Shown in pieces: positions 990-41,620 of a stretch of 53,301 nt of DNA (the first letter of the stretch is position 1; every line of letters begins with the position of its first letter). The notes under the pieces were generated by a model. It searched no databases and was not told where the DNA came from. It worked only from the letters and a program-made list of their open reading frames with translations. The DNA is from Alphaproteobacteria bacterium (lineage in GTDB: Bacteria; Pseudomonadota; Alphaproteobacteria; JALCBB01): positions 1 to 53,301 of the forward strand of contig JALCBB010000001.1 of NCBI GenBank assembly GCA_028066985.1. The letters are read 5' to 3'. The position numbers were made by a program, and so were the translations under genes.

Positions 990-1472
990 GTGCAATCGCT
1001 CTTCCTCGGTACATTCGAGAACCGAATCGACTCCAAAGGTCGCGTGCTCGTGCCCGCCGCCTTCAGGCAGCCCCTCAGTCAGGACGGGCAGCCCGGACTC
1101 GTCTGCTATCCCGATATCAATCAGACCGCGCTCGAAGGCGTCAGTCTGCGCACGCTCAACGACTCCTTCAACGCGCTGCGCGAGCAGTACGAAATGTATT
1201 CGCCCGAATACGAAGCCGTGATGTCCATTCTCAGCGGCGCCGCAAACCTCTCGTGGGACAGCGGCGGACGCGTTCAACTCCCGGAACGGCTCCTCAAAAA
1301 AGCCGGCATCCGCAGCGATGTCGTTTTCGTCGGACTCGGCGACAGGTTCCGTATCTGGGATCCGAACCTCTACCAGAAGCACCTCGGTGTTGTCGCGAAG
1401 ATCACGGAGAAGGGCAACATCACCATCTCGCTCGCTTCCGCGCGGAGAGACGGTCAGGGTAAATCGGAATGA
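990..1472 (+). CDS. mraZ: Transcriptional regulator MraZ
   Basis: 160-aa ORF with N-terminus MQSLFLGTFENRIDSKGRVLVPAAFR typical of MraZ; first gene of the dcw cluster. Confidence 0.9.
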   Translation: MQSLFLGTFENRIDSKGRVLVPAAFRQPLSQDGQPGLVCYPDINQTALEGVSLRTLNDSFNALREQYEMYSPEYEAVMSILSGAANLSWDSGGRVQLPERLLKKAGIRSDVVFVGLGDRFRIWDPNLYQKHLGVVAKITEKGNITISLASARRDGQGKSE

Positions 1473-1816
1473 CGACACCGCCCGCCTCCTCTGTCGTCAC
1501 AGACGCGACCCGCGACAACGGACACCTGCGCGGTCGTCCGTCACTGTCATTGTTAAAGGTCAATGGCGCCTCGCCCACTAATGCCACAGGCCACGCCACG
1601 GGGGACACCTTTCATGGTCGTCCGTCACCGTCATTGTCCTTTAACAATTTTAATTTTTTGTCGGCAGCGCCGACAGGCATCAGTGGGTGCGGCTCGCTTG
1701 AGCCGACACCGTTAACAGTCAATGACACCTCGCCCACTAATGCCAAGGGACGTGCCACGGGGGACGCCTTTCATGGTCGTCCGTCATCGGCGCTCAAAAG
1801 CGGGGCGAAACAATGA
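1469..1816 (+). other. Repeat-derived bridging ORF (115 codons); coding status doubtful
   Basis: ATG 1469 overlaps the mraZ stop (ATGA) and the stop overlaps the rsmH ATG 1813 (ATGA). Nearly the whole ORF is translated repeat DNA (GDTFHGRPSPSLSFNNFNFLSAAPTGISGCGSLEPT). Confidence 0.25.
1519..1790 (+). repeat. Repeat array: X hairpin, distal half-arm, X hairpin, full arm (1640-1744), X hairpin
   Basis: X = GGACACCTTTCATGGTCGTCCGTCACCGTCATTGTCC-like units at 1519-1554, 1600-1639 and 1759-1790. Arm hairpin GTCGGCAGCGCCGAC at 1660-1674; CCCACTAATGCC at 1574-1585 and 1733-1744. Confidence 0.85.
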
Positions 1817-3142: not shown

Positions 3143-5416
3143 ATGCCGAACACGCCTTCGCCGTCTCCCGACTTTCTGCTCGGACGCGACCTCCTCTCGC
3201 ACACCGGCGCGATGCGGCGGCTGCACCGTCACCGCTCGTGCCAGAACTCCGGCGCCGACCCGATGGAGCGCAGAAATCTCAGAATCCTCGTCTGCCTCGT
3301 GCTCGTCTGCTGCGGCTTCGCGACCATCATCTTCAGACTCGGCGCCGTCATGGCTCCGTGGGACAACGACAGCGCGAAACTGCCGCACCCCATCCGCGCA
3401 ATCGCCGACGCCGCCGAAAAACCCGTCATCACCGACAGGCACGGCGAAATCCTCGCAATGGATCTGCCCGCGTATTCGCCGTACGCGCGTCCGAAGGAAA
3501 TGCGGAACCCGCGCCGCGCCGCGCGACTGCTCGCGTCGGCGATTGAGGACGCCAGTCCCGTTGAACTCGCCGCCGCGTTCCAGAACGCCGCCGACAACGA
3601 CGAGCCGTTCGTCTGGGTCGCGCGGTATATTTCGCCCCGCGAGGCGCGCGCCGTGATGAAGCGCGGCGTCGTCGGCGTGGAAATGATGGCGACGAAACGG
3701 CGCAGTCATCCGCTCGGAAGTCTCGCGTCGCATGTCACCGGCTTCACCGACATTGACGGCCGCGGCCTCGCCGGAATGGAACGGCTCGCGTCGGCGCGCG
3801 CGGAAGAGGGCAGGGGATCGGGTGAGGAGATCGCGCCTGTCGCGCTGTCGCTGGATCTGCGCGTTCAGCATGCGCTGGAGGAAGAACTTCACGCCACGAT
3901 GACGAAATTCCAGGGCAAGGGCGCCGCCGGCGTCGTGATGGACGCGAACAGCGGCGAAATTCTCGCTATCGCTTCGCTGCCGAATTTTCATCCCGACCGG
4001 CGCGAGATGCTTAACGAGGAAAATCGTTTTAATCGCGCCACGCTCGGCGTCTACGAGTTCGGCTCCGTTCTCAAGCCGCTCACCTACGCGACCGTGATGG
4101 AGGCGACGCCGCGCGGCGAGTGGAGCGCGCTCTTCGCTTCGCGTTATTCAACTTCGCCGATGCGGATTCCGGGATACACGATCACGGATTATCGTCCGAA
4201 ACATGCGAATGTGAAATTCGCGGAGGGGATGATTCATTCGTCCAATGTGACGACGGCGAAGGTGATGCGCCGCATCGGCGCGCCGTCGCTCAGGGACGGC
4301 TTCCACAGACTCGGCATGGCCGAAATCGCGCCGCTGGAACTCGGCGAGCGCGGACTGCCGCAGATGCCCGCGAAGTGGGGGCCGACTGAATCGGTCACGG
4401 CGTCTTACGGGCACGGGATCGCGGTGTCGCCTGTGCATATTGTTCGCGCCTTCGCGGCGGTCGTGAACGGCGGAGTGCTGCCGTCGCCGACATTGCTTAA
4501 GGGCGGCGCGGCGCCGGGCGCGCGGGTGCTGTCGGCGGAGACTTCGGCGGTGATGCGGCGTTTGTTGCGGCTCGTCGTGCTTGAGGGAACGGGGCGCAAG
4601 GCGGACGCGGACGGGTATCTTGTCGGCGGCAAGACGGGGACTGCCAATCAGGTTTCGCCGAGCGGCGGCTATGACGACAATCTTCGCATCGCGTCTTTTG
4701 TCGCGGCGTTTCCGATGGATGCGCCGCGGTATGTGACTTTTATGATGGTGGAGAATCCGGTGCCGAGCGAGGACAGTTTCGGTTTCGCGACGGGCGGCTG
4801 GGTCGCGGCGAGCGCGACGCGTCTGCTTGTGGCGCGGATCGCGCCGTTGCTTGGCGTGCTGCCGCGTGACAGCGAGGAGTTTGACACGGGCGCCCTTAAT
4901 TTTCTGAACACACCCGATGTTAACGCGGCACCCTTTGTCGTCGTCAACAATGAAACAACGGATTACAGCCCCGGCATCTTGTCTGTCGTCCACAACACCA
5001 TTGACAGCAATGACATTGACAATGAAGCGACCGACTACAAACCCGGCGCCTTGTCTGTCGTCCACAATAAAACAACGGACAACGAAACGGACACCTTGCA
5101 TGGTCGTCCGTCACCGTCGTTGTCTCTTAATAATTTTAATTTTTTGCGGGCAGCGCCCGCGGGCATCAGTGGGCGCGGTTCGCTTGAGCCAACAGCGCGC
5201 CAGTCCGAAAATCCTCTCCCACTAATGCCGAAGGCCGTCCAGGAGGATGCGATAACCGCCGACGCCTCGCCCGTCAATGAGTCCATTGACGCCATTGACG
5301 CGATCATCGCCGACACTTTAAGCGTCCAGCCCGTTGATGAAACCGTCATCCCCGCCGCCGATGAAACGCCCGCGGACATCACCTCGCTCATTCAACTCGT
5401 CCTCAGCGGAACCTGA
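3143..5416 (+). CDS. ftsI: Peptidoglycan D,D-transpeptidase FtsI (PBP3) with a repeat-containing C-terminal extension
   Basis: SxxK (GSVLKP), SxN (HSSNV) and KTG (GGKTGTA) motifs. Start uncertain (internal Met at MERRNLRILV possible). The last ~170 codons include a repeat insertion. Confidence 0.9.
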   Translation: MPNTPSPSPDFLLGRDLLSHTGAMRRLHRHRSCQNSGADPMERRNLRILVCLVLVCCGFATIIFRLGAVMAPWDNDSAKLPHPIRAIADAAEKPVITDRHGEILAMDLPAYSPYARPKEMRNPRRAARLLASAIEDASPVELAAAFQNAADNDEPFVWVARYISPREARAVMKRGVVGVEMMATKRRSHPLGSLASHVTGFTDIDGRGLAGMERLASARAEEGRGSGEEIAPVALSLDLRVQHALEEELHATMTKFQGKGAAGVVMDANSGEILAIASLPNFHPDRREMLNEENRFNRATLGVYEFGSVLKPLTYATVMEATPRGEWSALFASRYSTSPMRIPGYTITDYRPKHANVKFAEGMIHSSNVTTAKVMRRIGAPSLRDGFHRLGMAEIAPLELGERGLPQMPAKWGPTESVTASYGHGIAVSPVHIVRAFAAVVNGGVLPSPTLLKGGAAPGARVLSAETSAVMRRLLRLVVLEGTGRKADADGYLVGGKTGTANQVSPSGGYDDNLRIASFVAAFPMDAPRYVTFMMVENPVPSEDSFGFATGGWVAASATRLLVARIAPLLGVLPRDSEEFDTGALNFLNTPDVNAAPFVVVNNETTDYSPGILSVVHNTIDSNDIDNEATDYKPGALSVVHNKTTDNETDTLHGRPSPSLSLNNFNFLRAAPAGISGRGSLEPTARQSENPLPLMPKAVQEDAITADASPVNESIDAIDAIIADTLSVQPVDETVIPAADETPADITSLIQLVLSGT
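4925..5235 (+). repeat. Repeat element inserted in frame in the ftsI 3' region
   Basis: CCTTTGTCGTC leader; two copies of a ~69-bp direct repeat (CTTGTCTGTCGTCCACAA at 4978-4995 and 5050-5067); X hairpin 5087-5126; AT run; arm hairpin GCGGGCAGCGCCCGC 5146-5160; CCCACTAATGCC 5218-5229. Same layout as 12096-12412. Confidence 0.85.
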
Positions 5417-9562: not shown

Positions 9563-10969
9563 ATGCACTTCAGCGCGGCAGACAAAATCTTCGTCCTCGG
9601 ACTCGGCGCGACCGGCGGCTCGGTCGTCGCCGCCGCCCTCGCCGACAACGCCAGCGTCTGCGCCTGGGACGACAATCCCGAACAAAGACGGCTTGACCCC
9701 GCGCCGGGGCTGTCACTGCCGCGAAACGAAAACGACGCGCGCCGCGAACTGCAGGACGCGACACTGCTCGTGTGGAGTCCGGGCATTCCGCATTCCGGCG
9801 AAAACGCGCACCCCATCGCCCGCGAAGCGAAAAAATGCGGACTCAAACCCGTCTCCGATGTTGAGGTCTTCCTGCGCGGACTGCGCGCGGAAAAAAACAG
9901 CGCCAGAGTCGCCGCCGTCACAGGCACCGACGGCAAATCAACCACCGCGACACTCATCGCCGAATTCCTCTCCGCCGACGGCAAACACGCCGTGCCGTGC
10001 GGCAACCTGGGGCCTCCCGTGCTGAATGTCGCGCGCGAACGCGGGACGCAGGGACAGCCCGTCTATGTGCTGGAACTCAGTTCGTTTCAACTCACCATCA
10101 CGCCGTCGCTCGCCGCCGAGGTCGCCGTGCTTGTCAGTCTCGCGCCCGATCACATCGACTGGCACGGCTCGCTGGAGAAATACATCAGCGCCAAACGCGC
10201 CGTCTTTCATAACGCCGCCAGCGCCGTTATCGGCACCGACGACGAACTCTCCGCGCGCGAAGCCGAGCGCATTCAGAGCGAGAGCGGTCATCGGAGTCCG
10301 CCGTGCGTGCGTGTTTCCGGACGCGCGATGCCGGACGGCGGCGTCGGTGTGCAGTCCGACGCGCTGCGCGACCGGCACGGAACCGTCGCCGACTTTCCGG
10401 ACGACAGCCCCTTCGCCGCGCGGCATAACCGTCTCAACGCCGCCGCCGCCTTCGCCGCCGCCTCGCTCCTCGGAGCCTCGCGCCGCAACGCCGAGAGTGT
10501 GCTTAAAAACTTTCGCGGGCTGCCGCATCGGTACGAAATTGTCGGCGAGCGCGACGGTGTTTCTTTTGTCAACGACTCCAAGGCGACGACCGTTCACGCC
10601 GCGCGCGCCGCCCTCGCCGCCGAGCAGAATATTTTCTGGATCGCCGGCGGCAACGCCAAGGGGCAGAACCTCGCGCCGCTCTTCTCGGACGACAATCACG
10701 CGCGGCATCTTTACGCGATCGGCAACGCCGCCGATGAACTTCTGCGCCACGCCGCCGCCGCGGGAATTTCGGCGACAAAACACGACAGCCTCGCCGACGC
10801 CTTCAATGTCGCCGCCTCCGCCGCCGCCGAATTCGTCACGAAATCGGGGGAGGGCGCGGTTGTCCTGTTGTCGCCGGCATGTGCTTCAACCGACGACTTC
10901 CGCAACTTCGCGGATCGCGGAAATCAATTTCGCAAACTCGCCGAGCATCGGCGCGGAGTGAAAAACTGA
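9563..10969 (+). CDS. murD: UDP-N-acetylmuramoylalanine--D-glutamate ligase MurD
   Basis: Refined start ATG 9563 (MHFSAADKIFVLGLGATGGS), in frame with track ORF 9458. VTGTDGKST P-loop and NDSKATT motif. Confidence 0.93.
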   Translation: MHFSAADKIFVLGLGATGGSVVAAALADNASVCAWDDNPEQRRLDPAPGLSLPRNENDARRELQDATLLVWSPGIPHSGENAHPIAREAKKCGLKPVSDVEVFLRGLRAEKNSARVAAVTGTDGKSTTATLIAEFLSADGKHAVPCGNLGPPVLNVARERGTQGQPVYVLELSSFQLTITPSLAAEVAVLVSLAPDHIDWHGSLEKYISAKRAVFHNAASAVIGTDDELSAREAERIQSESGHRSPPCVRVSGRAMPDGGVGVQSDALRDRHGTVADFPDDSPFAARHNRLNAAAAFAAASLLGASRRNAESVLKNFRGLPHRYEIVGERDGVSFVNDSKATTVHAARAALAAEQNIFWIAGGNAKGQNLAPLFSDDNHARHLYAIGNAADELLRHAAAAGISATKHDSLADAFNVAASAAAEFVTKSGEGAVVLLSPACASTDDFRNFADRGNQFRKLAEHRRGVKN

Positions 10970-12090
10970 TGCCGCACCGACTCATTCCGAAACGCGACAA
11001 CAGCGTCTTCTCGCAGTGGTGGTGGAGCGCCGACCTGCCCGTGCTTGCCGCGCTCGCCGCGCTCATCTTCTTCGGGATGCTCCTCTCGTTCAGCGCGACC
11101 CAGCCGCTCGCCGCCAGTCTCGGACAGCAGCACTACGCCCGCGCGATGCCGCATATGGCGTATGCGCTGGTCGCGCTCGCGCTGCTTGTCGCGGTGTCGT
11201 TTCTCAATGCTGACGCGGTTCGGCGCGCGGCGATTATCGCGTGCGCGGCGTGTGTCGTGCTGCTGGTCGCGACGCTTGTGATCGGCACCGAGATCAAGGG
11301 CGCGCGGCGGTGGCTTAATGTGTTCGGGTTTTCGGTGCAGCCGAGCGAGTTTGCGAAGCCGGCTTTCGCGGTCGCGGCGGCGTGGCTGCTGACGGCGGCG
11401 GGCGGGAGGTTTCGGCATCCGGCGTCGCTGGCGGCGTTCGGGCTTTGCGCGCTGCTTTGCGGCTTGCTGCTGCTTCAGCCGGACATCGGGCAGACGGTGA
11501 TTGTCATTTTTATTTTCGGCGCCGAATTTTTTGTCGCCGGGTTTTCGCCTTTTCTTGTGGCGGCGCTGGCTTTGCTTGGCGCGCTGATTTTGCTCGGCGC
11601 GTATCATCTTTTTCCGCATGTGGCGGAGCGGATTAATATTTTTCTGGACCCGGCGTCCGGCGACACTTATCAGGTGGAGCGTTCGCTTGAGGCGTTCGGC
11701 GCCGGCGGGTGGCGCGGTGTCGGGCTGCTGGACGGGCAGATCAAGCAGAAACTTCCGGACCGGCAGTCTGATTTTATTTTCGCTGTTATCGGCGAGGAGA
11801 TGGGTTTCGTTTTCGCGCTGCTTGTGGTTCTGACATTTATGTTTATCGCGGTGCGGGTGCTGTTGAAACTTTCGCGCGAGCCGCGGGCGTTCGCGGCTGT
11901 CGCGGGTGTGGGGCTGCTTACGCAGTTTATCGCGCAGACTTTTGTCAATGTCGGTTCAAGTTTGCAGATGATTCCGACGAAGGGGATGACGCTGCCGTTT
12001 TTGAGTCATGGCGGGTCTTCTTTGCTGGCGATGGGGCTTGGAATGGGCGCGCTCCTGGCACTCCTCAGAAGTCCACATATAACACGATGA
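10969..12090 (+). CDS. ftsW: Peptidoglycan glycosyltransferase FtsW (SEDS family)
   Basis: Refined start ATG 10969 (TGATG overlap with the murD stop). QPSEFAKP, PDRQSDFIF and GMTLPFLSHGGSS motifs. Confidence 0.93.
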   Translation: MPHRLIPKRDNSVFSQWWWSADLPVLAALAALIFFGMLLSFSATQPLAASLGQQHYARAMPHMAYALVALALLVAVSFLNADAVRRAAIIACAACVVLLVATLVIGTEIKGARRWLNVFGFSVQPSEFAKPAFAVAAAWLLTAAGGRFRHPASLAAFGLCALLCGLLLLQPDIGQTVIVIFIFGAEFFVAGFSPFLVAALALLGALILLGAYHLFPHVAERINIFLDPASGDTYQVERSLEAFGAGGWRGVGLLDGQIKQKLPDRQSDFIFAVIGEEMGFVFALLVVLTFMFIAVRVLLKLSREPRAFAAVAGVGLLTQFIAQTFVNVGSSLQMIPTKGMTLPFLSHGGSSLLAMGLGMGALLALLRSPHITR

Positions 12091-12416
12091 CAAACGACTC
12101 TCACACCGCCTTTGTCGTCAATGACACAGATGACACTTTGTCTGTCGTCAACCATGCTTTGACGACCGCGACAACTGCCCCCGCCTCTTTGTCTGTCGTC
12201 AATGCACACAATGACAACGACAATGACAATGGACACCTGCATTGTCGTCCATCACTGTCATTGTCCTTTTTTATTTTTTTGCAGGCAGCGCCTGCGGGCA
12301 TCAGCGGGTGCGGCTCGCTTGAGCCAACACCTTTGCCAGTCCAAGTCGCTCGCTCACTAATGCCAGAGGCGGTGCTTCGGGGGGGCGACTTGCATGGTCG
12401 TCCATTCACATCATGA
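12087..12416 (+). other. Repeat-derived bridging ORF (109 codons); coding status doubtful
   Basis: ATG 12087 overlaps the ftsW stop (ATGA) and the stop overlaps the murG ATG 12413 (ATGA). The arm is read in the same frame as in ftsI (FFIFLQAAPAGISGCGSLEPT). Confidence 0.25.
12096..12412 (+). repeat. Repeat element between ftsW and murG, flanked by the direct repeat ATGACAAA
   Basis: CCTTTGTCGTC leader, CTTTGTCTGTCGTCAA twice, X hairpin 12229-12266, T run, arm hairpin GCAGGCAGCGCCTGC 12281-12295, CTCACTAATGCC 12353-12364, terminal AGAGGCGGTGCTTCG, second X 12382-12410. ATGACAAA at 12087-12094 and 12413-12420. Confidence 0.85.
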
Positions 12417-13555
12417 CAAAGAACCCCCACATCGTCCTCGTCGCCGGCGGAACCGCAGGACATCTCTTCCCCGCGCTCGCCACCGCGCAGACCCTCCAGG
12501 CCCAGGACTACAGCGTCGCCCTCATCTGCGATCACCGCACTCACTCACACCTCCAGTCACAAAACATCACCATCACCGCTCACACCCTCCCCGCCGCCTC
12601 GCCGCGCTCGCGCAACCCCGTCACCATCGCCCTCGCCACCTTCACTCTTATTAACAGCACCCTCAAAGCCGCCAGACTCTTCATCGCCCGCCGACCCCGC
12701 GCCGTCATCACCTTCGGCGGATACACCAGCATCCCCCCCGCCATCGCCGCCATCACCCTCCGCATCCCGACCATCATCCACGAGCAAAATCACACCCTCG
12801 GCCTCGCCAACAAACTCCTCGCCCCCGTCGCCACCACAATCGCCACCTCCTTCCCCGACACCCGCGGACTGCCGAAATACGCCCGCCGCAAAACCACAAC
12901 CACCGGCACTCCCGTCCGCGCCAACATCGCCGCCGTCGCCGGCACTCCATACAAAACACCGCAGGACAGCGGCACCGTTAATGTCCTCGTCATCGGCGGC
13001 AGCCAGGGCGCCGAAACTTTCAATCACCTCATCCCCGAAACTATCGCGCTGCTCCCCGAAAATATCCGCAGCCGCCTCCGCATCACGCAACAAGTGCGCG
13101 GCGACACCGCGTCCGTTCGCCGTCAGTACCAGGACCTCAACATCAACGCCGACCTCGCCGGCTTCTTCACAAACATCAACGAACTCCTCGCCGATACACA
13201 CCTCGTCATCGCGCGCGCCGGCGCATCAACCGTCGCCGAACTCGTCGCCACCGCGCGTCCTGCCATTCTCATTCCGTACCCCCACGCCGCCAACAACCAC
13301 CAGACGCACAACGCGCGAAACTTCGCAAACCTCGGCGGCGGACAAATGCTCGCGCAAGACAAAGCCTCCCCGCGAACCCTCGCCGACACCCTCGCCGAAT
13401 GGCTCGCAAACCCCGACAAACTCATCGCCGCGTCAAACGCGCTTCGTAACCAGTCGCCGAAAAATCCGGAGGCGCGGCTCGCGAACTGCGTCCGCGACAT
13501 CATCGCCCGCAAAAGCGTCGGCCGCCGCCAGACGAAAGAAAGGCTCGCGCTGTGA
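12413..13555 (+). CDS. murG: UDP-N-acetylglucosamine--N-acetylmuramyl-(pentapeptide) pyrophosphoryl-undecaprenol GlcNAc transferase MurG
   Basis: GGTAGHLFPALA N-terminal motif and ARAGASTVAEL. Confidence 0.95.
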   Translation: MTKNPHIVLVAGGTAGHLFPALATAQTLQAQDYSVALICDHRTHSHLQSQNITITAHTLPAASPRSRNPVTIALATFTLINSTLKAARLFIARRPRAVITFGGYTSIPPAIAAITLRIPTIIHEQNHTLGLANKLLAPVATTIATSFPDTRGLPKYARRKTTTTGTPVRANIAAVAGTPYKTPQDSGTVNVLVIGGSQGAETFNHLIPETIALLPENIRSRLRITQQVRGDTASVRRQYQDLNINADLAGFFTNINELLADTHLVIARAGASTVAELVATARPAILIPYPHAANNHQTHNARNFANLGGGQMLAQDKASPRTLADTLAEWLANPDKLIAASNALRNQSPKNPEARLANCVRDIIARKSVGRRQTKERLAL

Positions 13556-15012
13556 CGCCCATCCACCAGCGCAAGCCGGGACTGCTGCCCGCCGACACGG
13601 GGCCGATCCACTTCATCGGCATCGGCGGCATCGGCATGAGCGGCATCGCCGAAGTGCTGCACAGCCTCGGATTCAATGTCCAGGGCAGCGACAACGCGAA
13701 TACGCCGAACCTGCAGCGTCTGCAAAAACTCGGCATCACCGCCTTTGCGAAACATCACAAAAATAATATCCGCGACGCCGATGTCGTCGTCGTGTCGTCC
13801 GCCATTCCCGGCGACAACCCCGAACTCGCCGCCGCGAAAGAACAGTTCATTCCCGTCATTCATCGCTCGGAAATGCTCGCCGAACTGATGAAACTCAAAA
13901 ACTCCATCGCCGTCACCGGGACGCACGGCAAAACCACCACCACCGCGCTCGTCTCCCACGCCCTCTGGAACACGCACCTCAACCCCACGACCATCAACGG
14001 CGGCATCGTCAACGAATGGGGCAGCAACGCCAGAATCGGCAACTCCGAGTGGATGGTCGTTGAAGCCGACGAAAGCGACGGCAGTTTCAGAAATCTGCAG
14101 TCCACCGTCGCGGTCGTCACCAACTGCGACTCCGAACACATGGACTTCTGGAAAAGTCAGCGGTCGCTTCACAACGCCTTCCGCAACTTCATCGGCAGCG
14201 TGCCGTTCTACGGATTCGCCGCGCTCTGCATTGACCACCCCGTCGTCCGCAAGATGGCGCGCGACACGACACAGCGCCGCGTCATCACCTACGGACTCTC
14301 GCCCCTCGCCGAAATTCACGCCGAGAATCCGCAGATGTCCGAACTCGGCACGCGGTTTGATCTCGTCATCGCGCCGCGCGGGTCGCAGGCGAAGCGGAAA
14401 ATCAAGTCCGTCTTTCTCTCGCTGATGGGCGAGCATAATGTGCAGAACGCGCTCGCCGCCGTCGCCGTCGCGCACGGACTCGGGCTGGATATCAACGCCG
14501 TCGCCGAAAGTTTCGCCGGCTTCTCCGGCGTCAAGCGCAGATTCACCCGCGTCGCCAGGGTCAGCAACATCAGTTTCATTGACGACTACGCGCACCATCC
14601 CGCCGAGATTCAGGTCGTGCTGCAGACCGCGCGGCAACTCCTCGCCGCGCGCGAAAACGGCGGCAGGGTCGTCGCGGTCGTTCAGCCGCACAGGTATTCG
14701 CGGCTTCAGGCGATGCTCGCCGAATTCTGCGCGTCGTTTGACAACGCCGCCGCCGTTTTCGTCACGCCCGTCTACGCCGCCGGCGAAAAGGCGCGCGAAG
14801 GCGTGAGTCACCGCGCGCTCGTCCGCGGACTGCGCGAACACGGACACAGACGCGCGAAAGCCGTCGCCAACCCCGACGAACTCGCCGCCGAACTCGCCGC
14901 CGAACTCAAGCCGCACGACTGCGTTATCTTCCTCGGCGCCGGCGACATCACGCGGTGGGCGGAAATCGCGCCGTCCGCCGTCGCGCGACTTCTCAACATC
15001 AGGGTCGCGTGA
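13552..15012 (+). CDS. murC: UDP-N-acetylmuramate--L-alanine ligase MurC
   Basis: IHFIGIGGIGMSGIAEVL and VTGTHGKTTTT; GTGA overlap with the murG stop. Confidence 0.95.
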   Translation: MTPIHQRKPGLLPADTGPIHFIGIGGIGMSGIAEVLHSLGFNVQGSDNANTPNLQRLQKLGITAFAKHHKNNIRDADVVVVSSAIPGDNPELAAAKEQFIPVIHRSEMLAELMKLKNSIAVTGTHGKTTTTALVSHALWNTHLNPTTINGGIVNEWGSNARIGNSEWMVVEADESDGSFRNLQSTVAVVTNCDSEHMDFWKSQRSLHNAFRNFIGSVPFYGFAALCIDHPVVRKMARDTTQRRVITYGLSPLAEIHAENPQMSELGTRFDLVIAPRGSQAKRKIKSVFLSLMGEHNVQNALAAVAVAHGLGLDINAVAESFAGFSGVKRRFTRVARVSNISFIDDYAHHPAEIQVVLQTARQLLAARENGGRVVAVVQPHRYSRLQAMLAEFCASFDNAAAVFVTPVYAAGEKAREGVSHRALVRGLREHGHRRAKAVANPDELAAELAAELKPHDCVIFLGAGDITRWAEIAPSAVARLLNIRVA

Positions 15013-16010: not shown

Positions 16011-17229
16011 GTCGCGGCGCGCGCTCGTGCTGTACGGCGGCGTTTCGCCGGAGCGCGAGGTGTCGCTTGTGTCGGGACGCGAGTGCGCCGCCGCGCTGAA
16101 GCGGCTCGGCTGGGAGGTCGCGTTGTATGACTGGCGCGGCGACGGCGATGACTTTCGCGCGCGCGCGGCGGGGGCGCGGTTTGTGTTTAACGCGCTGCAT
16201 GGCGGCGACGGCGAGAACGGCGATCTGGCGCGGCGGTTTGAAGATGTGCTGTTCACACATTCGCCGCCTGGGGCGTCGGCGCTGGCGATGGACAAGGTGC
16301 AGACGCGCGAGTTCGCGGTGAGCATTGGTTTGAGTGTGCCGCCCGGCGAGATTGCGACTTGCGCGGAGGTGCGGTCTGGTTTTGAGCCGTTTGCGCGTCC
16401 GTTTGTGGTGAAGCCGATCGCGGGGGGGTCAAGTATTGGTGTTTGCATTGTCGGCGGCGGGGGTGATGTGTCGGCGATGGAGTGTGGTGATGATGATGAT
16501 TTGCTTGTGGAGGTGTTTATTCCCGGGCGTGAGTTGACGGTTTCGGTTTTGGATGGTCGTGCGCTGGCGGTGACGGAGTTGCGGTCGCGGACGGCGTTTT
16601 ATGATTATGAGGCGAAGTATTCTTCGGGTGTGACGGAGCATCTTGTGCCGGCGCCGGTGCCGGAGGGTGTGTATCGCGCGGCGATGGAGGCGGCGGAGCG
16701 GATGCATGAGGTTTTGGGTTGTCGGGGTGTGTCGCGGAGTGATTTTCGCTGGGATGAGGGTGGTGTGGTTGATGGTGTGGTGTTGTATTTGCTGGAGGTG
16801 AATACGCAGCCTGGGATGACGCCGACGAGTCTGGTGCCGGAGCAGGCTTTGTTTTGCGGGATGGATTTTGACGCGCTTGTTGCGCGGATTGTTGATTCTG
16901 CCTTGTCCGCCAATTCGTCAAACAGCGACACAATGAAGGCGCCCCTTAAAAAGTCCAATGATGCGGACACATCAGGCGCGCCCGTTTCATTGTCTTCTCC
17001 TTCATCGTCCGTCACCGCTCCTGTTAAGGAGTGCGATGGGGACAATAAAGGGGGGCGAGTTTCATTGTCCTCTCTTTCATTGTCTGACAATTCGCTTGTT
17101 AAAAAGTCCGATATGGACAATAAAAGGGCGCGTTGTTCGTCGTCCTCTTCATTGTCTGTCAATTCGCCCGTTAAAAAGTCCAACGGGGACGCTTTAAGTG
17201 CGCCTTTTTCTGTCGGAGTTGCGTCGTGA
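16003..17229 (+). CDS. ddl: D-alanine--D-alanine ligase with a repeat-encoded C-terminal tail
   Basis: Refined start GTG 16003, overlapping the murB stop. LVLYGGVSPEREVSL and the ATP-grasp motif EVNTQPGMT. The canonical domain ends near ARIVDSAL (about 16905); about 100 further codons are tandem repeats. Confidence 0.9.
   Translation: MAESRRALVLYGGVSPEREVSLVSGRECAAALKRLGWEVALYDWRGDGDDFRARAAGARFVFNALHGGDGENGDLARRFEDVLFTHSPPGASALAMDKVQTREFAVSIGLSVPPGEIATCAEVRSGFEPFARPFVVKPIAGGSSIGVCIVGGGGDVSAMECGDDDDLLVEVFIPGRELTVSVLDGRALAVTELRSRTAFYDYEAKYSSGVTEHLVPAPVPEGVYRAAMEAAERMHEVLGCRGVSRSDFRWDEGGVVDGVVLYLLEVNTQPGMTPTSLVPEQALFCGMDFDALVARIVDSALSANSSNSDTMKAPLKKSNDADTSGAPVSLSSPSSSVTAPVKECDGDNKGGRVSLSSLSLSDNSLVKKSDMDNKRARCSSSSSLSVNSPVKKSNGDALSAPFSVGVAS
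16944..17200 (+). repeat. About 75-bp tandem repeat, roughly 3.4 copies, inside the ddl 3' end
   Basis: Units start near 16944, 17022, 17097 and 17170. Each carries GTTAAAAAGTCC...GGACAATAAA...TTTCATTGTCC with GGACAAT/ATTGTCC inverted repeats. A period of 25 codons keeps the frame. Confidence 0.8.
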
Positions 17230-21805: not shown

Positions 21806-22654
21806 ATGGACGCCCAGCCGCAGACCACCATCGCCGCGCCCGTCTCGTGGGAGGGCTACGGACTGCATCGCGGACGGCACGGTGTCGCGTCGGTGCTGCC
21901 CGCCGAGGAGAATGTCGGCTACAGAATTCGCAAGTCGGGCGGCGATCCGAAAGACGACATTAAAGTGTCTCCGCTCTATGCGGAGCCGTCGCCGTTGCAG
22001 ACGCAGTTGCGGCGCGGCGGACAGCGCGCGTATACGGTTGAACATTTGTTGTCGGCGTGTTACGGGCTGGGGCTGGACAATGTTGTGATTGAGTTGAGCG
22101 AGGAGGAGCCTCCGATACTTGACGGCAGCGCGTTTTTGTTCGCGCGCGACATTCATGCGGCGGGCGTGCGCGAGCAGGGGGCGCCGCGCCGGGTGCTGGA
22201 GGTTGCGGAGCCTTTTACGCACAGCGAGGGCGCGACGGAGATGCGTTTTCTGCCGTCGTCGGCGCTGGAGATTGTGGTGGAGATTGATTTTGAGGCTTTG
22301 GCTATCGGGTATCAGCGGCTGGAGATTTGTCTGACGCCGGAGCGGTATTTGCGCGAGGTCGCGCCGGCGCGGACTTTTCTGTTGCGGGAGGATTTGCCGT
22401 TTATGCGGCGGTATGGTCTGGGTCGCGGGGGGAATTTGAAGAACGCGATTATTGTGGATGGTGCGCGGGTGCATAGTCAGGAGCCGTTGCGGTTTGCGGA
22501 TGAGTTTGTGCGTCATAAGTTGCTGGATCTTGTGGGGGATCTGGCGTTATTGGGGGCGCCGTTGCGGGGCCGTGTGGAGGTTAACCGGCCTGGTCACAGT
22601 GTTACGATTAATGCGCTCCGCGAGTGGACAACGAAGCACCCCCTTCGGCATTAG
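21806..22654 (+). CDS. lpxC: UDP-3-O-acyl-N-acetylglucosamine deacetylase LpxC
   Basis: VEHLLSACYGLGLDN, PILDGSA and FVRHKLLDLVGDLAL motifs. The last ~9 codons and the TAG stop lie inside a repeat arm. Confidence 0.93.
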   Translation: MDAQPQTTIAAPVSWEGYGLHRGRHGVASVLPAEENVGYRIRKSGGDPKDDIKVSPLYAEPSPLQTQLRRGGQRAYTVEHLLSACYGLGLDNVVIELSEEEPPILDGSAFLFARDIHAAGVREQGAPRRVLEVAEPFTHSEGATEMRFLPSSALEIVVEIDFEALAIGYQRLEICLTPERYLREVAPARTFLLREDLPFMRRYGLGRGGNLKNAIIVDGARVHSQEPLRFADEFVRHKLLDLVGDLALLGAPLRGRVEVNRPGHSVTINALREWTTKHPLRH

Positions 22655-26044: not shown

Positions 26045-27259
26045 ATGAAAAAGATTTCGGTCAAAGGCTCCGTGGTTGAGTTGGACGGCGACGAGATGAC
26101 GCGCGTCATCTGGCGCGAAATCCGCGAGAAGTTGATCCTGCCGTTTCTGGATGTGGACCTGGTGTATTTTGATCTGGGTCTGCCTTCGCGCGACAAGACC
26201 TCCGACAAGGTGACGCTGGACGCGGCGGCGGCGATACGCGAGCATCGCGTGGGCGTGAAGTGCGCGACGATCACGCCGAACGCCGAGCGTGTTGAAGAGT
26301 TCGGACTCAAGGAGATGTGGCGCTCGCCGAACGGCACGATCCGCAATTATCTGAACGGCACGGTGTTTCGGGAGGCGATTATCTGTCGGAATGTGCCGCG
26401 TCTTGTTCCGAACTGGACGCGTCCGATTATTGTGGCGCGTCATGCGTATGGCGATCAGTATCGCGCGACGGACATGCGGATCGCGGGGCGCGGTGTTTTG
26501 TCTATGCGCTTTGAGCCTGAGAACGGCGGCGAGGCGACGGAGATGGTGGTGCGCGAGTTTCCCGGAGGCGGCGTGGCGCTGTCTATGTTCAACGAGGACG
26601 AGTCTATGGAGGGCTTTGCGCGCGCGTGTTTCAGTTATGCGCTGGAGCGGGGTGTGGATGTGTATTTTTCCACGAAGGACACGATTTTGAAGGTTTATGA
26701 CGGACATTTCCGCGACTGTTTTCAGGCGGTGTTTGACGGCGAGTTCGCGGAGTTGTTTCGGGAGCGCGGGTTGAAGTACGAGCATCGTCTGATTGACGAC
26801 ATGGTTGCGTCCGCGTTGAAGTGGTCTGGCGGTTATTTGTGGGCGTGCAAGAATTATGATGGAGATGTGCAGTCTGACATGATTGCGCAGGGTTTCGGTT
26901 CTTTGGGTCTGATGACATCGGTTTTGCTGACGCCGGACGGACGGGTTGTTGAGGCGGAGGCGGCGCATGGCACGGTGACGCGGCATTTTCGGATGCATGA
27001 GCGCGGCGAGGCGACGAGCACGAATCCGATGGCGACGATTTTCGCGTGGACGCGGGCGTTGGGGTGGCGCGGACGGTTTGACGGCACTCCGGAGGTTGTG
27101 GAGTTTGCGGGGAAGTTGGAGGGTGTGTGTGTGGGCGCGATAGAGTCCGGGAAGATGACGAAGGATCTGGCTTTGCTGGTGGGTCCTGAGCAGGGCTGGA
27201 TGGAGACCTTCGCGTATCTGGACTACCTTGCCGAGCGTTTAAGCGAAGCCCTTAATTAA
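26045..27259 (+). CDS. icd: NADP-dependent isocitrate dehydrogenase (404-aa homodimeric, eukaryote-like subtype)
   Basis: N-terminus MKKISVKGSVVELDGDEMTRVIWREIREKLILPFLDVDL plus NYDGDVQSD and GTVTRH motifs. Confidence 0.95.
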   Translation: MKKISVKGSVVELDGDEMTRVIWREIREKLILPFLDVDLVYFDLGLPSRDKTSDKVTLDAAAAIREHRVGVKCATITPNAERVEEFGLKEMWRSPNGTIRNYLNGTVFREAIICRNVPRLVPNWTRPIIVARHAYGDQYRATDMRIAGRGVLSMRFEPENGGEATEMVVREFPGGGVALSMFNEDESMEGFARACFSYALERGVDVYFSTKDTILKVYDGHFRDCFQAVFDGEFAELFRERGLKYEHRLIDDMVASALKWSGGYLWACKNYDGDVQSDMIAQGFGSLGLMTSVLLTPDGRVVEAEAAHGTVTRHFRMHERGEATSTNPMATIFAWTRALGWRGRFDGTPEVVEFAGKLEGVCVGAIESGKMTKDLALLVGPEQGWMETFAYLDYLAERLSEALN

Positions 27260-27597
27260 AGGGACAAGCGAAGTGCGACCTTTGGCATTAGTGGGCGTTT
27301 GACTAAGACATTCACGATGTCGGCTCAAGCGAAAACACGCCAACTAATGGGTGCGGGCTAGCCCGCAAAAAAATAAATAATAATTTATTGACTATTTAAG
27401 GGGTCAATTAAATAAATTGCTTTCTTATTAATTGACAAATAATGGAATGGTTATTGTCTATTAAATTAATTCTTTTAATTTTATTTTTTTGCAGGCAGCG
27501 CCTGCGGGCATCAGCGGGTATCGCTCGCTTGAGCCGACATCGTGACTAGTCTTAGTCACACGCCCACTAATGCCAAGGATCAGTCTTCGGAGTCGTC
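27260..27597. mobile_element. Composite mosaic palindromic element (MITE-like), between convergent icd and the RND permease
   Basis: Left arm: AGGGACAAGCGAAG, GGCATTAGTGGG 27284-27295, GACTAAGACATTCACGATG, GCTCAAGCGA, hairpin GCGGGCTAGCCCGC 27353-27366. AT core 27367-27490. Right arm: hairpin GCAGGCAGCGCCTGC 27491-27505, GCTTGAGCC, CCCACTAATGCC 27563-27574. Confidence 0.7.
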
Positions 27598-30500
27598 GTC
27601 TTCACGACGGGCGCCGAAAAGACGGGAAAGTAAGGAGCGGCGGGGGCGGGACTCCTCCGATGTCGGCGGGTCGTCTGAGCCAGCCCAACTGAACTCTCCG
27701 CCAGACACAGACACCGATACAGCCTCAGCCGCAACTCCAGCCAAAACACCGCGAGAAGTCGCCTCCAAAACAGCCAGCCGGCGTCCCTCCTTCTTGCTCC
27801 GACGGCGGCGGGCGCGCTCCTCCATGCGTCCCTTGTAAACCAAAGCCGACGGCGTCACCAGCAAAGTCAAAGGCGTCGCGAAGAACAAGCCGAACACAAT
27901 CACCGTGGATAACTGCACCCACCACAACGCGCTCGGCGAATTGTAGGTCACCGTCCGCTCAATGAAGTCAAAGTTCAACTTCAGCACCAGCGGCATCAAA
28001 CCCAGAATCGTCGTGCAAGCCGTCAGCAACACAGGACGCATGCGCTGCGCCCCCGTTCGCAAAATTGCCTCCGTCACATCCAGACCCGAACGCCGCAAAC
28101 CCTCATAGGTGTCAATCAACACAATGTTGTTGTTCACAATAATCCCCGCCAGCGCAATCACACCAATCCCGCACATCACAATCCCGAACGGCTGCCCCGT
28201 TATCAGCAGTCCAAGCATCACACCCGTCGTCGACATGATCACCGCCGACAATATCAATAACGCCGAGAAAAACGAGTTGAACTGCGTCACCAGAATCACA
28301 GCCATCAACGCCATCGCCACCATGAAGGCGCGCACCAGAAACGCCTGCGCCTCCATCTCCTCCACATTCTCGCCCACAAACTCATAACGAACACTCGGAT
28401 CCAGGTCCGCCTCGGCAAGCAAAGCCTCAAGTTCCGCCTGCTTCGCCGACACCAGAAATTCACGACCCGTCGCCGGATCTATGCCGACATTCGCCTCCAC
28501 CGTCACCACACGGCGCTGATCCACACGGCTGAAGACCGTGTCCGCGGGCTTCGTCTCCAGATCCACAAACGACGAAATCGGCACCAGGCCGCTGCGCGTC
28601 TGAATCCGCAACTGCTGCAACTGCGAAGTGTTGCGATAGTCAAGCGGCACGCGCGCGATGATGTCCACCTCCTCGGTCGTGTGATCCGGACGGTAACTCG
28701 CCAGTTTCAAACCGCCCGTGAACATCTCCACATAGTTCCCCACCAGCGACAAATTCGCGCCGAAACGCTCGGCCGCCGTCCGATCGACGATGAGTTCAAC
28801 ACCGAGTTCGGGCGGAGGCAGCGAGTCCTCAATGTCAACCACGCCGCCGGCGCTCTCCATCAGCGCGCGCACCCGCGCCGCCGTCGCCGGCAGAATCTCG
28901 GGCGAATTAGAAGTCAGACGCACCACAAGCGGCTTGCCCTCGCCGCCGGGACCCTCTTCGTCGGCCTGCGGCTCAATGACAATCCCCGCGAGATGCAGGG
29001 TGCGCTCGCGTATCTCTTCCAGAATCACCGTCGCCGGACGGCGCAGGTTGCTGTCCACGAGTTCAATCGTGATGTTGCCGATGATGTCGCTGTCGCTCTG
29101 TCCGGACACCTGACTCACCGTATACACCGACCCCATCTCGCCGTTCTCAATCGCGAGTTTCAGAATTTCAGCCTCGGCTTCGCGCACGAGATGATCGCGC
29201 TCCACCGCCGAAAAATTGCCCTGCGCGCGCACATGAATCACCGCCTGATCCGGCTCGGTCGCCGGGAAAAACTCCGTGCCCTGTCCGGAACGGCTGTAGG
29301 CGAAGAACGAACCCACCAGCACCGCCGCCGCCGCCAGCACCACAAGCGACGGAAAGCGTATCAGTCGCCGCAAAAGACGAATATACGCGCCCGTGAAGCC
29401 CTTCACCGCGTTCAGGTCGCCGCCGCGAGCGATCGCGCGCGCCGTCTTCACGCTCTCGTCCGTGCGCGCCTTGCCGAAAATGGAGCCTATCGTCGGCAGG
29501 AAAATTAGCGCCATGAACAGCGCCGCCGTAAGCACGATGATCTGCGTTATCGGCAGGAACTTCATAAACTCGCCCACCGTGCCGGGCCAGAACGCCAGCG
29601 GCAGAAACGCGCACAGGGTCGTCGCCGTGGACGAGGTGATCGGCCAGAACATTCGGTGCGACGCCTCGCGGAACGCCTCCTCGGCGGTCTTGCCCTCGGA
29701 CATCTTGCGGTCGGCGAACTCGGTCATCACGATGGAGCCGTCAACGAGGAGTCCGACCGACAAAATCAGCGCGAAGAGAACCACGATGTTAAGCGTGAAG
29801 CCGATGCTGCTGATCACCATGAACGCCACGAGCAGCGACGCCGGAATCGCGAAGCCGACCAGCAGCGCCGTGCGGAGTCCGATGGTGGCGATGAGAACAG
29901 TGACCACGAGCAGAATAGATGTCACGACCGAATTGCCGAGGTCGCTGATGATGCGGCGGATGTCGACGGACTCGTCGCCGCTGAAGGCGTAGGTCACGCC
30001 GGGGGGCCACTTTTTGCTCTCCTCTTCAACGACGATCTTCGCCTGGTCGATGGTTTCAATGATGTTCGTGCCGATGCGCTTCGTGATCTCAACGGAGACG
30101 CTGTTCTGTCCGTTGACGCGGACGAAGGAGTCCGGCTCGCGGAAGGTCGGGCGCACGATGGCGATGTCGCCGACGGTGACTTCTCTGTCGCCGTTGACGC
30201 GCAGGGGCAGGTCGATGATTTCTTCGTAGGAGCGGTAGAGACCCGGCACGCGGACGGCGAAGCGTCCGGCGCCTGTATCCAGGGTGCCGGCGGTGATGAC
30301 CTGGTTGTTGCTTGCGACCGCGGCGAGGACGGTGTCGGCTTCAAGTCCGTAGGACTCGAGTTTGACGGGGTCAATGATGACTTCGACCTGTTCGGGCAGG
30401 GTGCCGAAGACATCCGCGGTCAGGACGTTGGTGAGCGACTCCAGCGAGTCGGAGAGGTCTACCGCGACCTGGCGGATCACGCGTTCGGGCAGGCTGCTGG

Positions 30501-30933
30501 ACAGCGTGACGGTGATGATCGGAAACAGCGAGAGGTTGACTTCGCTGACGGTGGGTTCGTCGGCGTCGGCGGGGAGGTCGACGGCGACTTCGTCGCTGGC
30601 GACGCGGACGTCGTCCAGGGCGGTGTCAATGCTGTATCCGGCGGCGAATTCCAGTTGAACGAAGCCGCCGCCGGAGTATGCGGCGGAGGTCATTTCAATG
30701 ACGCCTTCCACGGCGCGCATTTTATTTTCCATGGGGCGGACGAGGAGTCGTTCGGAGTCTTCGGGCGAGATGCCGCGCTGGCTCATGCTGATGTAGAGGA
30801 TGGGGATCTGGACGTCGGGCTCGGACTCTCTGGGGATGGAGAGCATGGAGAGGTATCCGGAGATGAGGAAGATGAAGAGCAGCCCGAGGGTGGAGCGCTT
30901 GCGGAGGAGGGCGGCGTCAATGAGGTGGCTCAT
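27580..30933 (-). CDS. Efflux RND transporter permease subunit (AcrB/HAE1-like)
   Basis: 1117 aa, 12-TM RND architecture with two large periplasmic loops. The low-complexity C-terminal tail has its last codons and stop inside the element end. Confidence 0.95.
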   Translation of the reverse strand: MSHLIDAALLRKRSTLGLLFIFLISGYLSMLSIPRESEPDVQIPILYISMSQRGISPEDSERLLVRPMENKMRAVEGVIEMTSAAYSGGGFVQLEFAAGYSIDTALDDVRVASDEVAVDLPADADEPTVSEVNLSLFPIITVTLSSSLPERVIRQVAVDLSDSLESLTNVLTADVFGTLPEQVEVIIDPVKLESYGLEADTVLAAVASNNQVITAGTLDTGAGRFAVRVPGLYRSYEEIIDLPLRVNGDREVTVGDIAIVRPTFREPDSFVRVNGQNSVSVEITKRIGTNIIETIDQAKIVVEEESKKWPPGVTYAFSGDESVDIRRIISDLGNSVVTSILLVVTVLIATIGLRTALLVGFAIPASLLVAFMVISSIGFTLNIVVLFALILSVGLLVDGSIVMTEFADRKMSEGKTAEEAFREASHRMFWPITSSTATTLCAFLPLAFWPGTVGEFMKFLPITQIIVLTAALFMALIFLPTIGSIFGKARTDESVKTARAIARGGDLNAVKGFTGAYIRLLRRLIRFPSLVVLAAAAVLVGSFFAYSRSGQGTEFFPATEPDQAVIHVRAQGNFSAVERDHLVREAEAEILKLAIENGEMGSVYTVSQVSGQSDSDIIGNITIELVDSNLRRPATVILEEIRERTLHLAGIVIEPQADEEGPGGEGKPLVVRLTSNSPEILPATAARVRALMESAGGVVDIEDSLPPPELGVELIVDRTAAERFGANLSLVGNYVEMFTGGLKLASYRPDHTTEEVDIIARVPLDYRNTSQLQQLRIQTRSGLVPISSFVDLETKPADTVFSRVDQRRVVTVEANVGIDPATGREFLVSAKQAELEALLAEADLDPSVRYEFVGENVEEMEAQAFLVRAFMVAMALMAVILVTQFNSFFSALLILSAVIMSTTGVMLGLLITGQPFGIVMCGIGVIALAGIIVNNNIVLIDTYEGLRRSGLDVTEAILRTGAQRMRPVLLTACTTILGLMPLVLKLNFDFIERTVTYNSPSALWWVQLSTVIVFGLFFATPLTLLVTPSALVYKGRMEERARRRRSKKEGRRLAVLEATSRGVLAGVAAEAVSVSVSGGEFSWAGSDDPPTSEESRPRRSLLSRLFGARREDDDSED

Positions 30934-30951
30934 GGCGCGACCTTTCCGAGT

Positions 30952-31228
30952 CCGGTGGGAGCAGCCCCTGGCATTAGCGGGCGAGGAATCCAGGCTTGCC
31001 GTGACGGCCGCTCAAGCGAGCGACGCCCGCTGATGCCCGCGGGCGCTGCCCGCAAAAAATTAAATTTTAATGGACAGACGATGAATGGACGAACCGTCGG
31101 GCGGCTGTCTGTCCATTTATTTTTTTTGTCGGCAGCGCCGACAGGCGACAGTGGGTGCGGCTCGCTTGAGCCGACGCCGTTAACAGTCAATGACACCCCG
31201 CCCACTAATGCCAAGGGCGGTGCCATGG
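30952..31228. mobile_element. Composite palindromic element with a variant core, intercistronic in the RND operon
   Basis: GGCATTAGCGGG 30970-30981, CCCGCTGATGCC 31026-31037, hairpin GCGGGCGCTGCCCGC 31039-31053. The core holds a 9-bp stem TGGACAGAC 31071-31079 / GTCTGTCCA 31107-31115. Second hairpin GTCGGCAGCGCCGAC 31128-31142; CCCACTAATGCC 31201-31212. Confidence 0.7.
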
Positions 31229-31272
31229 AAAGTCCAAAGGCGGCACTGACGAATGACAGAAACTTGCCCATA

Positions 31273-34751: not shown

Positions 34752-35025
34752 CTCCCCCGACGACCAGCCCTTGGCATTAGTGGGCGTTTGACTTAGACAG
34801 TCACGATGTTCGCTCAAGCGAGCCGCACCCACTGATGCCCGCAGGCGCTGCCTGCAAAAAAATAAATTAAAGATTAAATGGACTATTTAAGGGGTCAATT
34901 AAATAAATTGTTTTTTTATTTTTTAATTTTTTGCGGGCTAGCCCGCACCCATCTGCTGGCATCGTTCGCTTGAGCGGCTGTTGTGAATGTCTTAGTCAAA
35001 GTCTTACTAATGCCAAAGGCTGTTT
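34752..35025. mobile_element. Composite mosaic palindromic element (short core), between convergent msrP and hemB
   Basis: GGCATTAGTGGG 34773-34784, CCCACTGATGCC 34828-34839, hairpin GCAGGCGCTGCCTGC 34841-34855, core 34856-34932, hairpin GCGGGCTAGCCCGC 34933-34946, CTTACTAATGCC 35003-35014. Confidence 0.7.
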
Positions 35026-36509: not shown

Positions 36510-36840
36510 AAGACAGACGAAGTGCCACATTCGGCATTAGTGGGCGTCTGACTAAGACAGTCACGATGTTTGCTCAAGCGAGCCGCACCCACTGATGCCC
36601 GCAGGCGCTGCCTGCAAAAAAATAAAATTAAAAAGAAATTAATTTATTTAATAGACACCATTAATTGTCTATTAATGAAAAGGCAATTGATTTAATTGAC
36701 CCCTTAAATAGTCAATAAATTATTATTTATTTTTTGCGGGCTAGCCCGCACCCGTCTGCTGGCATCGTTCGCTTGAGCCGACACCTTAAGAGTCTAAAAT
36801 TCTCGCCCACTAATGCCAGAAGCCGCACTTCGCCTGTCTC
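36510..36840. mobile_element. Composite mosaic palindromic element (archetype), between convergent moaE and ychF
   Basis: Terminal inverted repeats AAGACAGACGAAGTGCC... / ...GCACTTCGCCTGTCTC. GGCATTAGTGGG 36533-36544, CCCACTGATGCC 36588-36599, hairpin 36601-36615, AT core 36616-36735, hairpin GCGGGCTAGCCCGC 36736-36749, CCCACTAATGCC 36806-36817. TAATTAA on both flanks. Confidence 0.75.
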
Positions 36841-40794: not shown

Positions 40795-40795
40795 T

Positions 40796-41521: not shown

Positions 41522-41620
41522 ATTGAAGGACTTAAGACTATGATGACCACGCTGATTCGGGAAGGGGGTCTCGGCGACGGGTTTATTGATAAACGGACGC
41601 GGAGGGTATAGTCTTATTAT

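Follow-up and report, generated by a model that had tools for sequence, protein, structure and literature searches.

The genes ftsW and murG, neighbours in the complete dcw cluster of the alphaproteobacterial contig JALCBB010000001.1 (assembly GCA_028066985.1; the 53,301 nt analysed here are referred to as the window), are separated by a 322-bp insert, which is a copy of a dense family of palindromic repeat elements and which contains a single stop-free frame that begins over the ftsW stop codon and ends over the murG start codon. As an explanation, we consider it moderately probable that a copy resembling a miniature inverted-repeat transposable element (MITE) was inserted here, either where its end briefly matched the target or by way of a short target duplication, and that it now acts as a translational relay to murG. 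The bridging open reading frame (ORF) turned out to be the more robust feature, and the stronger result, in comparison with the 8-bp direct repeat ATGACAAA that flanks the insert and that an earlier note on this DNA had interpreted as the footprint of a transposition event; an 8-bp target duplication would by itself matter little.

The dcw cluster occupies the plus strand of the window in the order mraZ, rsmH, ftsL, ftsI, murE, murF, mraY, murD, ftsW, murG, murC, murB, ddl, ftsQ, ftsA, ftsZ and lpxC, and most of its genes are joined by overlapping stop and start codons. Within it, ftsW (10969..12090, plus strand; 373 amino acids as called in the source metagenome-assembled genome, or MAG; Pfam FTSW_RODA_SPOVE) ends with the TGA at 12088-12090 and equals the FtsW of a sister genome in length, and murG (12413..13555, plus strand; 380 amino acids) begins with the ATG at 12413. 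Direct reading of the sequence confirms that ATGACAAA is present on both sides of the insert, the left copy (12087..12094, within ATGACAAAC at 12087-12095) holding the ftsW stop and the right copy (12413..12420, within ATGACAAAG at 12413-12421) being the native murG start, i.e. Met-Thr-Lys. At the left copy, CGATGA is a native-type overlap at the Arg-stop end of FtsW, and GACAAA coincides with the terminal motif of the element. From left to right the two starts are spaced 326 bp apart, and the 322 bp lying in between constitute the insert; that this DNA is repeat element, as the earlier note had claimed, holds true, since it includes one of the 25 core copies found in the window. At the same gene boundary, the GC skew switches from +0.13 (11001-12000) to -0.33 (12001-14000) and the AT skew from -0.42 to +0.06, although the two genes share one strand; this switch probably stems not from a replication feature but from the codons of FtsW, a membrane protein, which are rich in T and G.

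What did this junction look like before the insert was present? The nearest relative, which we refer to as the sister genome, was found in a search of 5.8 billion proteins, in which the best match was a MAG with 51% MurG identity; among GTDB representative genomes the species is absent, with the best MurG match at 44%. FtsW and MurG of the sister genome have 373 and 380 amino acids, the same lengths as here, and its ftsW/murG junction (AAATAATGAAAAATAAC) is a 1-nt overlap, TAATG, with neither a spacer nor an element copy. Among 76 resolvable alphaproteobacterial ftsW/murG loci, a 4-nt NTGA overlap is present in 37 and a 1-nt overlap in nine, and CGATGAC(C) recurs among alphaproteobacterial junctions, several of which read CGATGAC..AAG (FtsW Arg-stop/MurG Met-Thr-Lys). 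Because the sister genome has no spacer, the protein lengths are equal and overlaps are common in alphaproteobacteria, the comparison supports a lineage-specific insertion of the 322 bp into an ancestral ftsW/murG stop/start overlap without a spacer; CGATGA on the left and ATGACAAAG (Met-Thr-Lys) on the right both look native. The tight ancestral overlap that the earlier note had postulated is thus borne out. Its more specific prediction of a single ATGACAAA at an insert-free junction finds no counterpart in the sole insert-free relative, which at 51% MurG identity is too distant to decide the matter; an empty ftsW/murG site was not found, the insert being present in all strains of the same species and in all members of the MurG cluster examined.

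The family to which the insert belongs is recognized by a core of ~112 nt with the consensus ATTTTATTTTTTTGCGGGCAGCGCCCGCGGGCATCAGTGGGCGCGGCTCGCTTGAGCC...CCCACTAATGCCAAAGGCCGCGCTTCG, which occurs in 25 copies in the window—one of them at 12268-12379—and thus at a density of ~1 per 2 kb. CTCGCTTGAGC and CACTAATGCC are nearly invariant words of this core, and a GC hairpin behind a T-run shows compensatory changes (GC 13, AU 13 and CG 4 at one pair). A long-range core stem formed by GGCATTAGTGGG and CCCACTGATGCC was rejected: it is not predicted by RNAalifold and fails in B-type arms, and compensation is seen in the GC hairpin only. A canonical element is an inverted pair of arms with an AT-rich centre between them, spans 327–329 bp from terminus to terminus and has AATTARRGAGACARRCGAAG as the terminus at both ends; its inverted arms are 97–227 nt long with a complementarity of 71–100%. 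Each canonical element combines one A-type arm (GCAGGCAGCGCCTGCGGGCATCAG...) and one B-type arm (GCGGGCTAGCCCGCACCCATCTGC...), and the unit is therefore asymmetric and not a simple palindrome. With an identity of 70–90%, the copies are old. ORFs spanning elements contain no Pfam domain, an Rfam scan of the window yielded no family that matches the element (and one tRNA only), and no transposase was found in the 53.3-kb window.

The ftsW/murG copy is a solo A-type arm with an array of short units to its left and one partial unit to its right, and it has the left terminus and most of the right terminus. On the plus strand, a left terminal repeat (12089..12114) consists of GACAAACGA, ctctca and CACCGCCTTTG; these motif matches, with GACAAACGA at 12089 and CACCGCCTTTG following at 12104, represent the terminal motif of the family in the correct orientation, and in the predicted fold, in which the two terminal repeats of the insert pair up, the partner of this inverted repeat is 12364-12374. 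Motif statistics for the window underline this assignment: GACARRCGA has 13 matches against 2.6 expected, and ten of the 12 besides that at 12089 fall within elements; exact GACAAACGA is found only at 12089 and at two true element termini; and CACCGCCYYTG has eight matches against 0.11 expected, 12104 and several element termini being among them. The array of short degenerate units (12104..12267) contains CTTTGTC(TG)TCGTCAA three times and (A)ATGACA four times, and the left part of the insert is marked by short GTCGTCAA and ATGACA repeats, with an inner unit GGACACCTGCATTGTCGTCCATCACTGTCATTGTCC at ~12231-12267. Then comes the core arm of the A subtype (12268..12385) with its T-run, the hairpin GCAGGCAGCGCCTGC (12281-12295), CTCGCTTGAGC, CACTAATGCC and the right terminal repeat CAGAGGCGGTGCTTCG, and an extra partial unit, GGGGGGCGACTTGCATGGTCGTCCATTCACATC (12380..12412), separates the right terminal repeat from the murG start. 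The same element subtype is found, also on the plus strand, in the mraZ/rsmH insert (1473-1812) and in ftsI (4930..5250 within the ORF 3143-5416), where it is read in frame as part of the C-terminal tail, and both of these inserts contain the short-unit types of the ftsW/murG array. The RNA of the ftsW/murG insert is predicted to be strongly structured (z = -4.9), and no promoter or terminator was predicted on its plus strand. murG has no Shine-Dalgarno sequence, and operon-first genes have one.

Does the 8-bp repeat record the insertion event itself? In the history proposed by the earlier note, a transposase-mobilized element would have inserted with an 8-bp stagger at the ATGA overlap, and ATGACAAA would be a true duplication of which one copy keeps the stop and the other the start. 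In its favour, the two boundaries carry the 8-mer without a mismatch, a CGATGAC-type overlap is a plausible ancestor, and both genes can survive an insertion into a 4-nt overlap only if ATGA at least is duplicated; the flanks of the mraZ/rsmH insert also have AATGAC, and only this, in common. Against this history, the flanks of six canonical copies share direct matches no longer than 3–7 nt, which is at chance level (null mean 4.0; the single 7-mer is part of a palindromic element end), and at the three junction inserts the flanking matches amount to 8, 6 and 0 bp, i.e. have no fixed length, with nothing in common beyond ATG at the insert between g31273 and g27580. The 8-bp duplications that the earlier note had suggested looking for around other copies of this element type thus did not appear beyond chance, an outcome that the note itself had named as refuting its history, and its assumption of an element generating an 8-bp target duplication is not upheld, although the copies are old enough that an original duplication at the canonical ones may have decayed.

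The anatomy of the two boundaries points in the same direction. Because GACAAACGA is the family terminus, six of the eight bases of the left copy (GACAAA) can belong to the element; in a true duplication, the element would have to begin right after its own missing terminal hexamer, which would be an unlikely coincidence. The right copy of the 8-mer does not adjoin the right terminal repeat, but is found ~30 nt past it with a further repeat unit in between. Moreover, no transposase was found in the window, and in the sister genome mraZ and rsmH do not overlap, being separated by a 17-nt gap. Taken together, an 8-bp-duplicating transposition is unlikely, and the ATGACAAA pair makes a poor case for a transposon footprint of 8 bp. 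The duplication that is needed may be as short as AT or ATGA and as long as 8 bp (2–8 bp), a length that the locus does not resolve; microhomology between element end and target explains the 8-mer at least as well as duplication does, the two being equally likely. That ATGACAAA is simply a fixed right-end part of the element was ruled out, as its distance from the last conserved unit is 7 nt in one and 28 nt in the other of two dcw junction inserts and as the rsmH start is native.

A further alternative is coincidence or convergence, in which both 8-mers would be ATGA restart sites followed by an A-rich Met-Thr-Lys/Asn context favoured by this genome. ATGACAAA occurs three times on both strands of the window (1.23 expected), and the third occurrence is the start of rsmH at 1813, which reads ATGACAAAC here and ATGACCAAC in the sister genome, so that this ATGAC[C/A]AAC start, being common to both, is native. 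ATGACA opens four of the 37 gene starts in the window and has four further occurrences inside the ftsW/murG insert; since the overlap geometry dictates ATGA at either site and ATGACA is a favoured start, the identity of the two 8-mers becomes less striking. Empirically, the full 8-mer is shared by one of the 36 pairs among nine ATGA-starting genes (~3%), which is still uncommon, and for the left hexamer the element terminus offers a specific explanation. Beyond the 8-mer a weak similarity also continues over ~28 nt (16/28 matches; in-phase empirical P = 0.004), though one other gene start scores as high. Overall, coincidence appears improbable, somewhat less credible even than the 8-bp transposition. 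The same extended similarity—a 36-nt direct repeat of 72% identity between the left end of the insert and the murG 5' end—might suggest that the first ~36 nt of the insert (MTNDSHTAFVV) are a diverged copy of the murG 5' end (MTKNPHIVLVA) generated by a longer duplication or repair event; this is very improbable, as the 28-nt stretch matches the independently supported terminal repeat of the family equally well, and as a codon-biased, C-rich composition inflates in-phase identity.

With respect to the bridging frame, the earlier note was right in all particulars: a 109-codon ORF (12087..12416, plus strand) opens with the left ATG overlapping the ftsW stop and closes with a TGA overlapping the murG ATG, which creates ATGA geometry at both ends, and this is the sole stop-free frame of the insert. 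A second bridge ORF, with 115 codons (1469..1816, plus strand) and likewise with ATGA overlaps at both ends, spans the mraZ/rsmH insert and is called as a hypothetical protein in one MAG. A third (30930..31271, minus strand) runs through an inverted core pair from an RND adaptor-like gene (31273-32394) to an RND pump-like gene (27580-30933; the names are inferred from the translations), starts as TGAtATG and ends with an ATGA overlap. Altogether, the window has five co-directional spacers that contain elements, and in three of these exactly one frame is free of stops and has its TGA over the downstream ATG, the frames in mraZ/rsmH and ftsW/murG starting on the upstream stop and that in the efflux-pump pair 1 nt after it; the two spacers without a bridge frame are AT-rich (GC 0.43–0.44) and have stops in every frame. 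With a 1-in-3 phase requirement, we estimate the probability of this recurrence at ~1e-3. In a related contig (L091), dprA is followed by a 196-codon ORF that passes through three arms and ends with an ATGA overlap, and then by topA; in shuffled sequences, the probability that this frame is open is 0.005. Finally, in a diverged strain (L226; 95% identity in RsmH) a net 18-nt indel and many substitutions distinguish the right part of the mraZ/rsmH insert, and the bridge frame is still open with its TGA/rsmH ATG overlap kept.

What is maintained is openness of the frame and not a peptide, since the frame differs between copies—at CACTAATGCC, for instance, SLMPEAV is read in one and SPTNAKG in another—and since the bridge ORFs lack the codon signature of genes in their GC content at third positions (GC3), which is 0.55 in the 109-codon ORF versus 0.74–0.81 in real genes. 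That the element carries this ORF and its relatives as genuine genes for small proteins is scarcely credible: their start/stop overlaps are typical of operon genes, PGAP called some of them hypothetical proteins and the insert is strongly conserved between strains, but no peptide is conserved through the frame shifts between copies, no Pfam domain is matched, the core is read in either orientation, and a protein search gave seven matches, all in the same MAG group. Inside ftsI, the ORF continues through the element to the conserved end ITSLIQLVL (ISSLIRLVL in the sister genome); since this conserved FtsI C-terminus lies 3' of the insert, the latter must be translated.

The ftsW/murG insert is also at least as constrained as the surrounding essential genes. 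Two strain groups were compared over 10.5 kb with 233 variable columns (2% of positions), and they differ at ~4.9% of third codon positions. The insert has one variable site in 322 bp, where ~15 would be expected at the third-position rate and 6.7 at the overall mean, and variable sites occur within 10–40 nt on both of its sides. Its sole variable site, 12326, is a synonymous A/G difference, which affects the last base of a codon (CCA/CCG) in the bridge ORF.

According to the relay explanation that we favour, a copy of the MITE-like palindromic element would have landed in an ancestral overlap CGATGACAAAG (FtsW ...Arg-stop/MurG Met-Thr-Lys), and both genes would have remained intact since ATGA was present on each side of the insert. 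The 8-bp identity would have arisen because the left terminus of the element (GACAAACGA...) equalled the target over GACAAA, with insertion occurring at this short element-end/target identity or with a 2–8-bp duplication, rather than representing the signature of an 8-bp-duplicating transposase. Later, the copy would have been kept stop-free in a single frame, namely that of the left ATG. A ribosome would thus end ftsW, restart at the ATGA, translate and thereby unfold the structured insert, stop at the TGA over the murG ATG and restart at murG. In this manner, the bridge frame probably keeps murG translation coupled to that of ftsW. Of all this, the data show the anatomy, the membership of the insert in the repeat family, the tight ancestral junction, the recurring bridge geometry, the maintained frame and the constraint on the sequence; how the insertion took place, and that MurG synthesis depends on translation of the bridge ORF, is inferred. 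A wider claim, which we put forward tentatively and with less confidence, has two parts: that the dense repeat family has colonized coupled junctions as ‘relay ORFs’, open frames without a conserved peptide that extend from an upstream stop to a downstream start, with selection on ribosome flow and not on a product shaping selfish DNA in operons, and that, as the near-invariance of the insert between strains would imply, the structured element has in addition taken on its own role within the dcw transcript.

Several points weigh against this relay explanation or limit its reach. For a bridge frame in the window, the shuffle probability of the required frame being open is 0.12–0.19 per spacer, and as single frames are therefore not very improbable, the statistical case rests on their recurrence and on the comparison with the diverged strain L226. 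Invariance comparable to that of the insert is shown by 7% of the 322-bp windows in the 10.5 kb. At the same time, its constraint goes beyond what an open frame needs, and it is likely that the insert has an added or different function, for example as a protein-binding site or through its structure as RNA or DNA. The right end of the insert is non-canonical, with a further unit of ~30 nt after the right terminal repeat, and the insert may have arrived in several steps rather than one. Finally, at this one site microhomology and a real 8-bp duplication predict the same sequence.

Among known systems, our analysis suggests that the element is best regarded as MITE-like and, where it lies inside genes, as similar to the Rickettsia palindromic elements (RPEs). 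Like the MITEs Correia/NEMIS of Neisseria and ERIC of enterobacteria, it is non-coding, present in high copy number, equipped with terminal inverted repeats and located at gene boundaries, and it is co-transcribed, strongly folded and able to supply stops or alter gene ends (PMC10969869). It is also short (<~500 bp), as is typical of MITEs, and the fixed-length target-site duplication expected of MITEs at every copy was not found. In contrast to Correia elements, with their TA duplication, promoters and IHF site, no consistent duplication, no predicted promoter on the plus strand and, within the window, no parent insertion sequence were found, and, unlike in Correia/ERIC-type MITEs, each full element pairs an A-type with a B-type arm. 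RPEs (PMC10969869) resemble it as short, high-copy palindromic repeats of an alphaproteobacterial symbiont that are read in frame, as seen here in the ftsI tail and in the ddl tail repeats. They differ in host lineage and have no known sequence relationship to it, and they are described as encoding a conserved peptide in one frame, whereas here no conserved peptide was found and the frame differs between copies; moreover, the present element is longer (327–329 bp, arms ~110 nt), and the review mentions no free-standing bridge ORFs that link two coupled genes.

On either side, the bridge has the geometry of classical termination–reinitiation at ATGA overlaps, although, in contrast to classical translational coupling, the coupling would be relayed via a 109-codon frame without an apparent function of its own. 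In the literature library that was searched, no paper was found that joins translational coupling with miniature inverted-repeat elements. A third resemblance is to REP/BIME sequences and RAYT-mobilized REPIN doublets, which are likewise inverted doublets of a structured unit that occur intergenically at very high density and without target duplication. REP units have ~20–40 nt, whereas the arms here have ~110 nt with several invariant words, and no RAYT gene was seen in the window.

Elsewhere in the window, canonical elements are located, in either overall orientation, at 27269-27589, 34759-35023, 36518-36832, 40471-40786, 42227-42543, 47335-47605 and 49761-50077. At 40568-42445, inverted repeats of 227 nt and 95% complementarity, the youngest-looking element pair in the window, flank a low-GC segment of 1.4 kb, which codes on its minus strand for a GNAT acetyltransferase or on its plus strand for a DUF805 protein; this may be a composite unit mobilized by the repeats. 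As an autonomous parent of the family, the 1.4-kb segment (40796-42220) was ruled out, since it encodes the GNAT or DUF805 proteins and no transposase. Stop codons of several genes lie within element arms or TTAATTAA-type ends at 22652-22654, 27257-27259, 50086-50088, 36881-36883 and other positions, and the lpxC stop is the TAG of GGCATTAGTGGG in an element arm; by implication, native gene 3' ends have been replaced by elements. At the 3' end of ddl (16984-17210), three tandem repeats of ~75 bp, rich in ATTGTC/GACAAT palindromes, are in frame in the tail of Ddl, which has 408 amino acids here and 334 in the sister genome, with homology stopping at residue 301; the ddl ORF ends in a GTGA overlap with ftsQ, and contigs of the other strain break or diverge there.

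The repeat family was found solely in a single organism, in MAGs and assemblies derived from metagenomes of Ianthella basta, and two metagenome scans with core motifs gave no genuine matches. Judging from the context, this sponge's dominant alphaproteobacterial symbiont, ‘Ca. Luteria ianthellae’ (PMC10947273), is probably the host. At the density of the window, a genome of ~2.3 Mb would contain between several hundred and ~1,000 copies; a single contig of 2,274,910 bp with the same locus (L217; ENA ERZ21781341 ctg64743c) would be expected to hold ~1,000 core copies at this density.

Overall, a previously undescribed repeat family fragments assemblies and reshapes gene ends in a model sponge symbiont. 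If the relay explanation is true, mobile repeats can invade tightly packed operons with coupled genes, even the essential dcw cluster for cell division and the cell wall, without breaking them, and the small ‘hypothetical proteins’ annotated in such spacers would be by-products of translational coupling and not genes.

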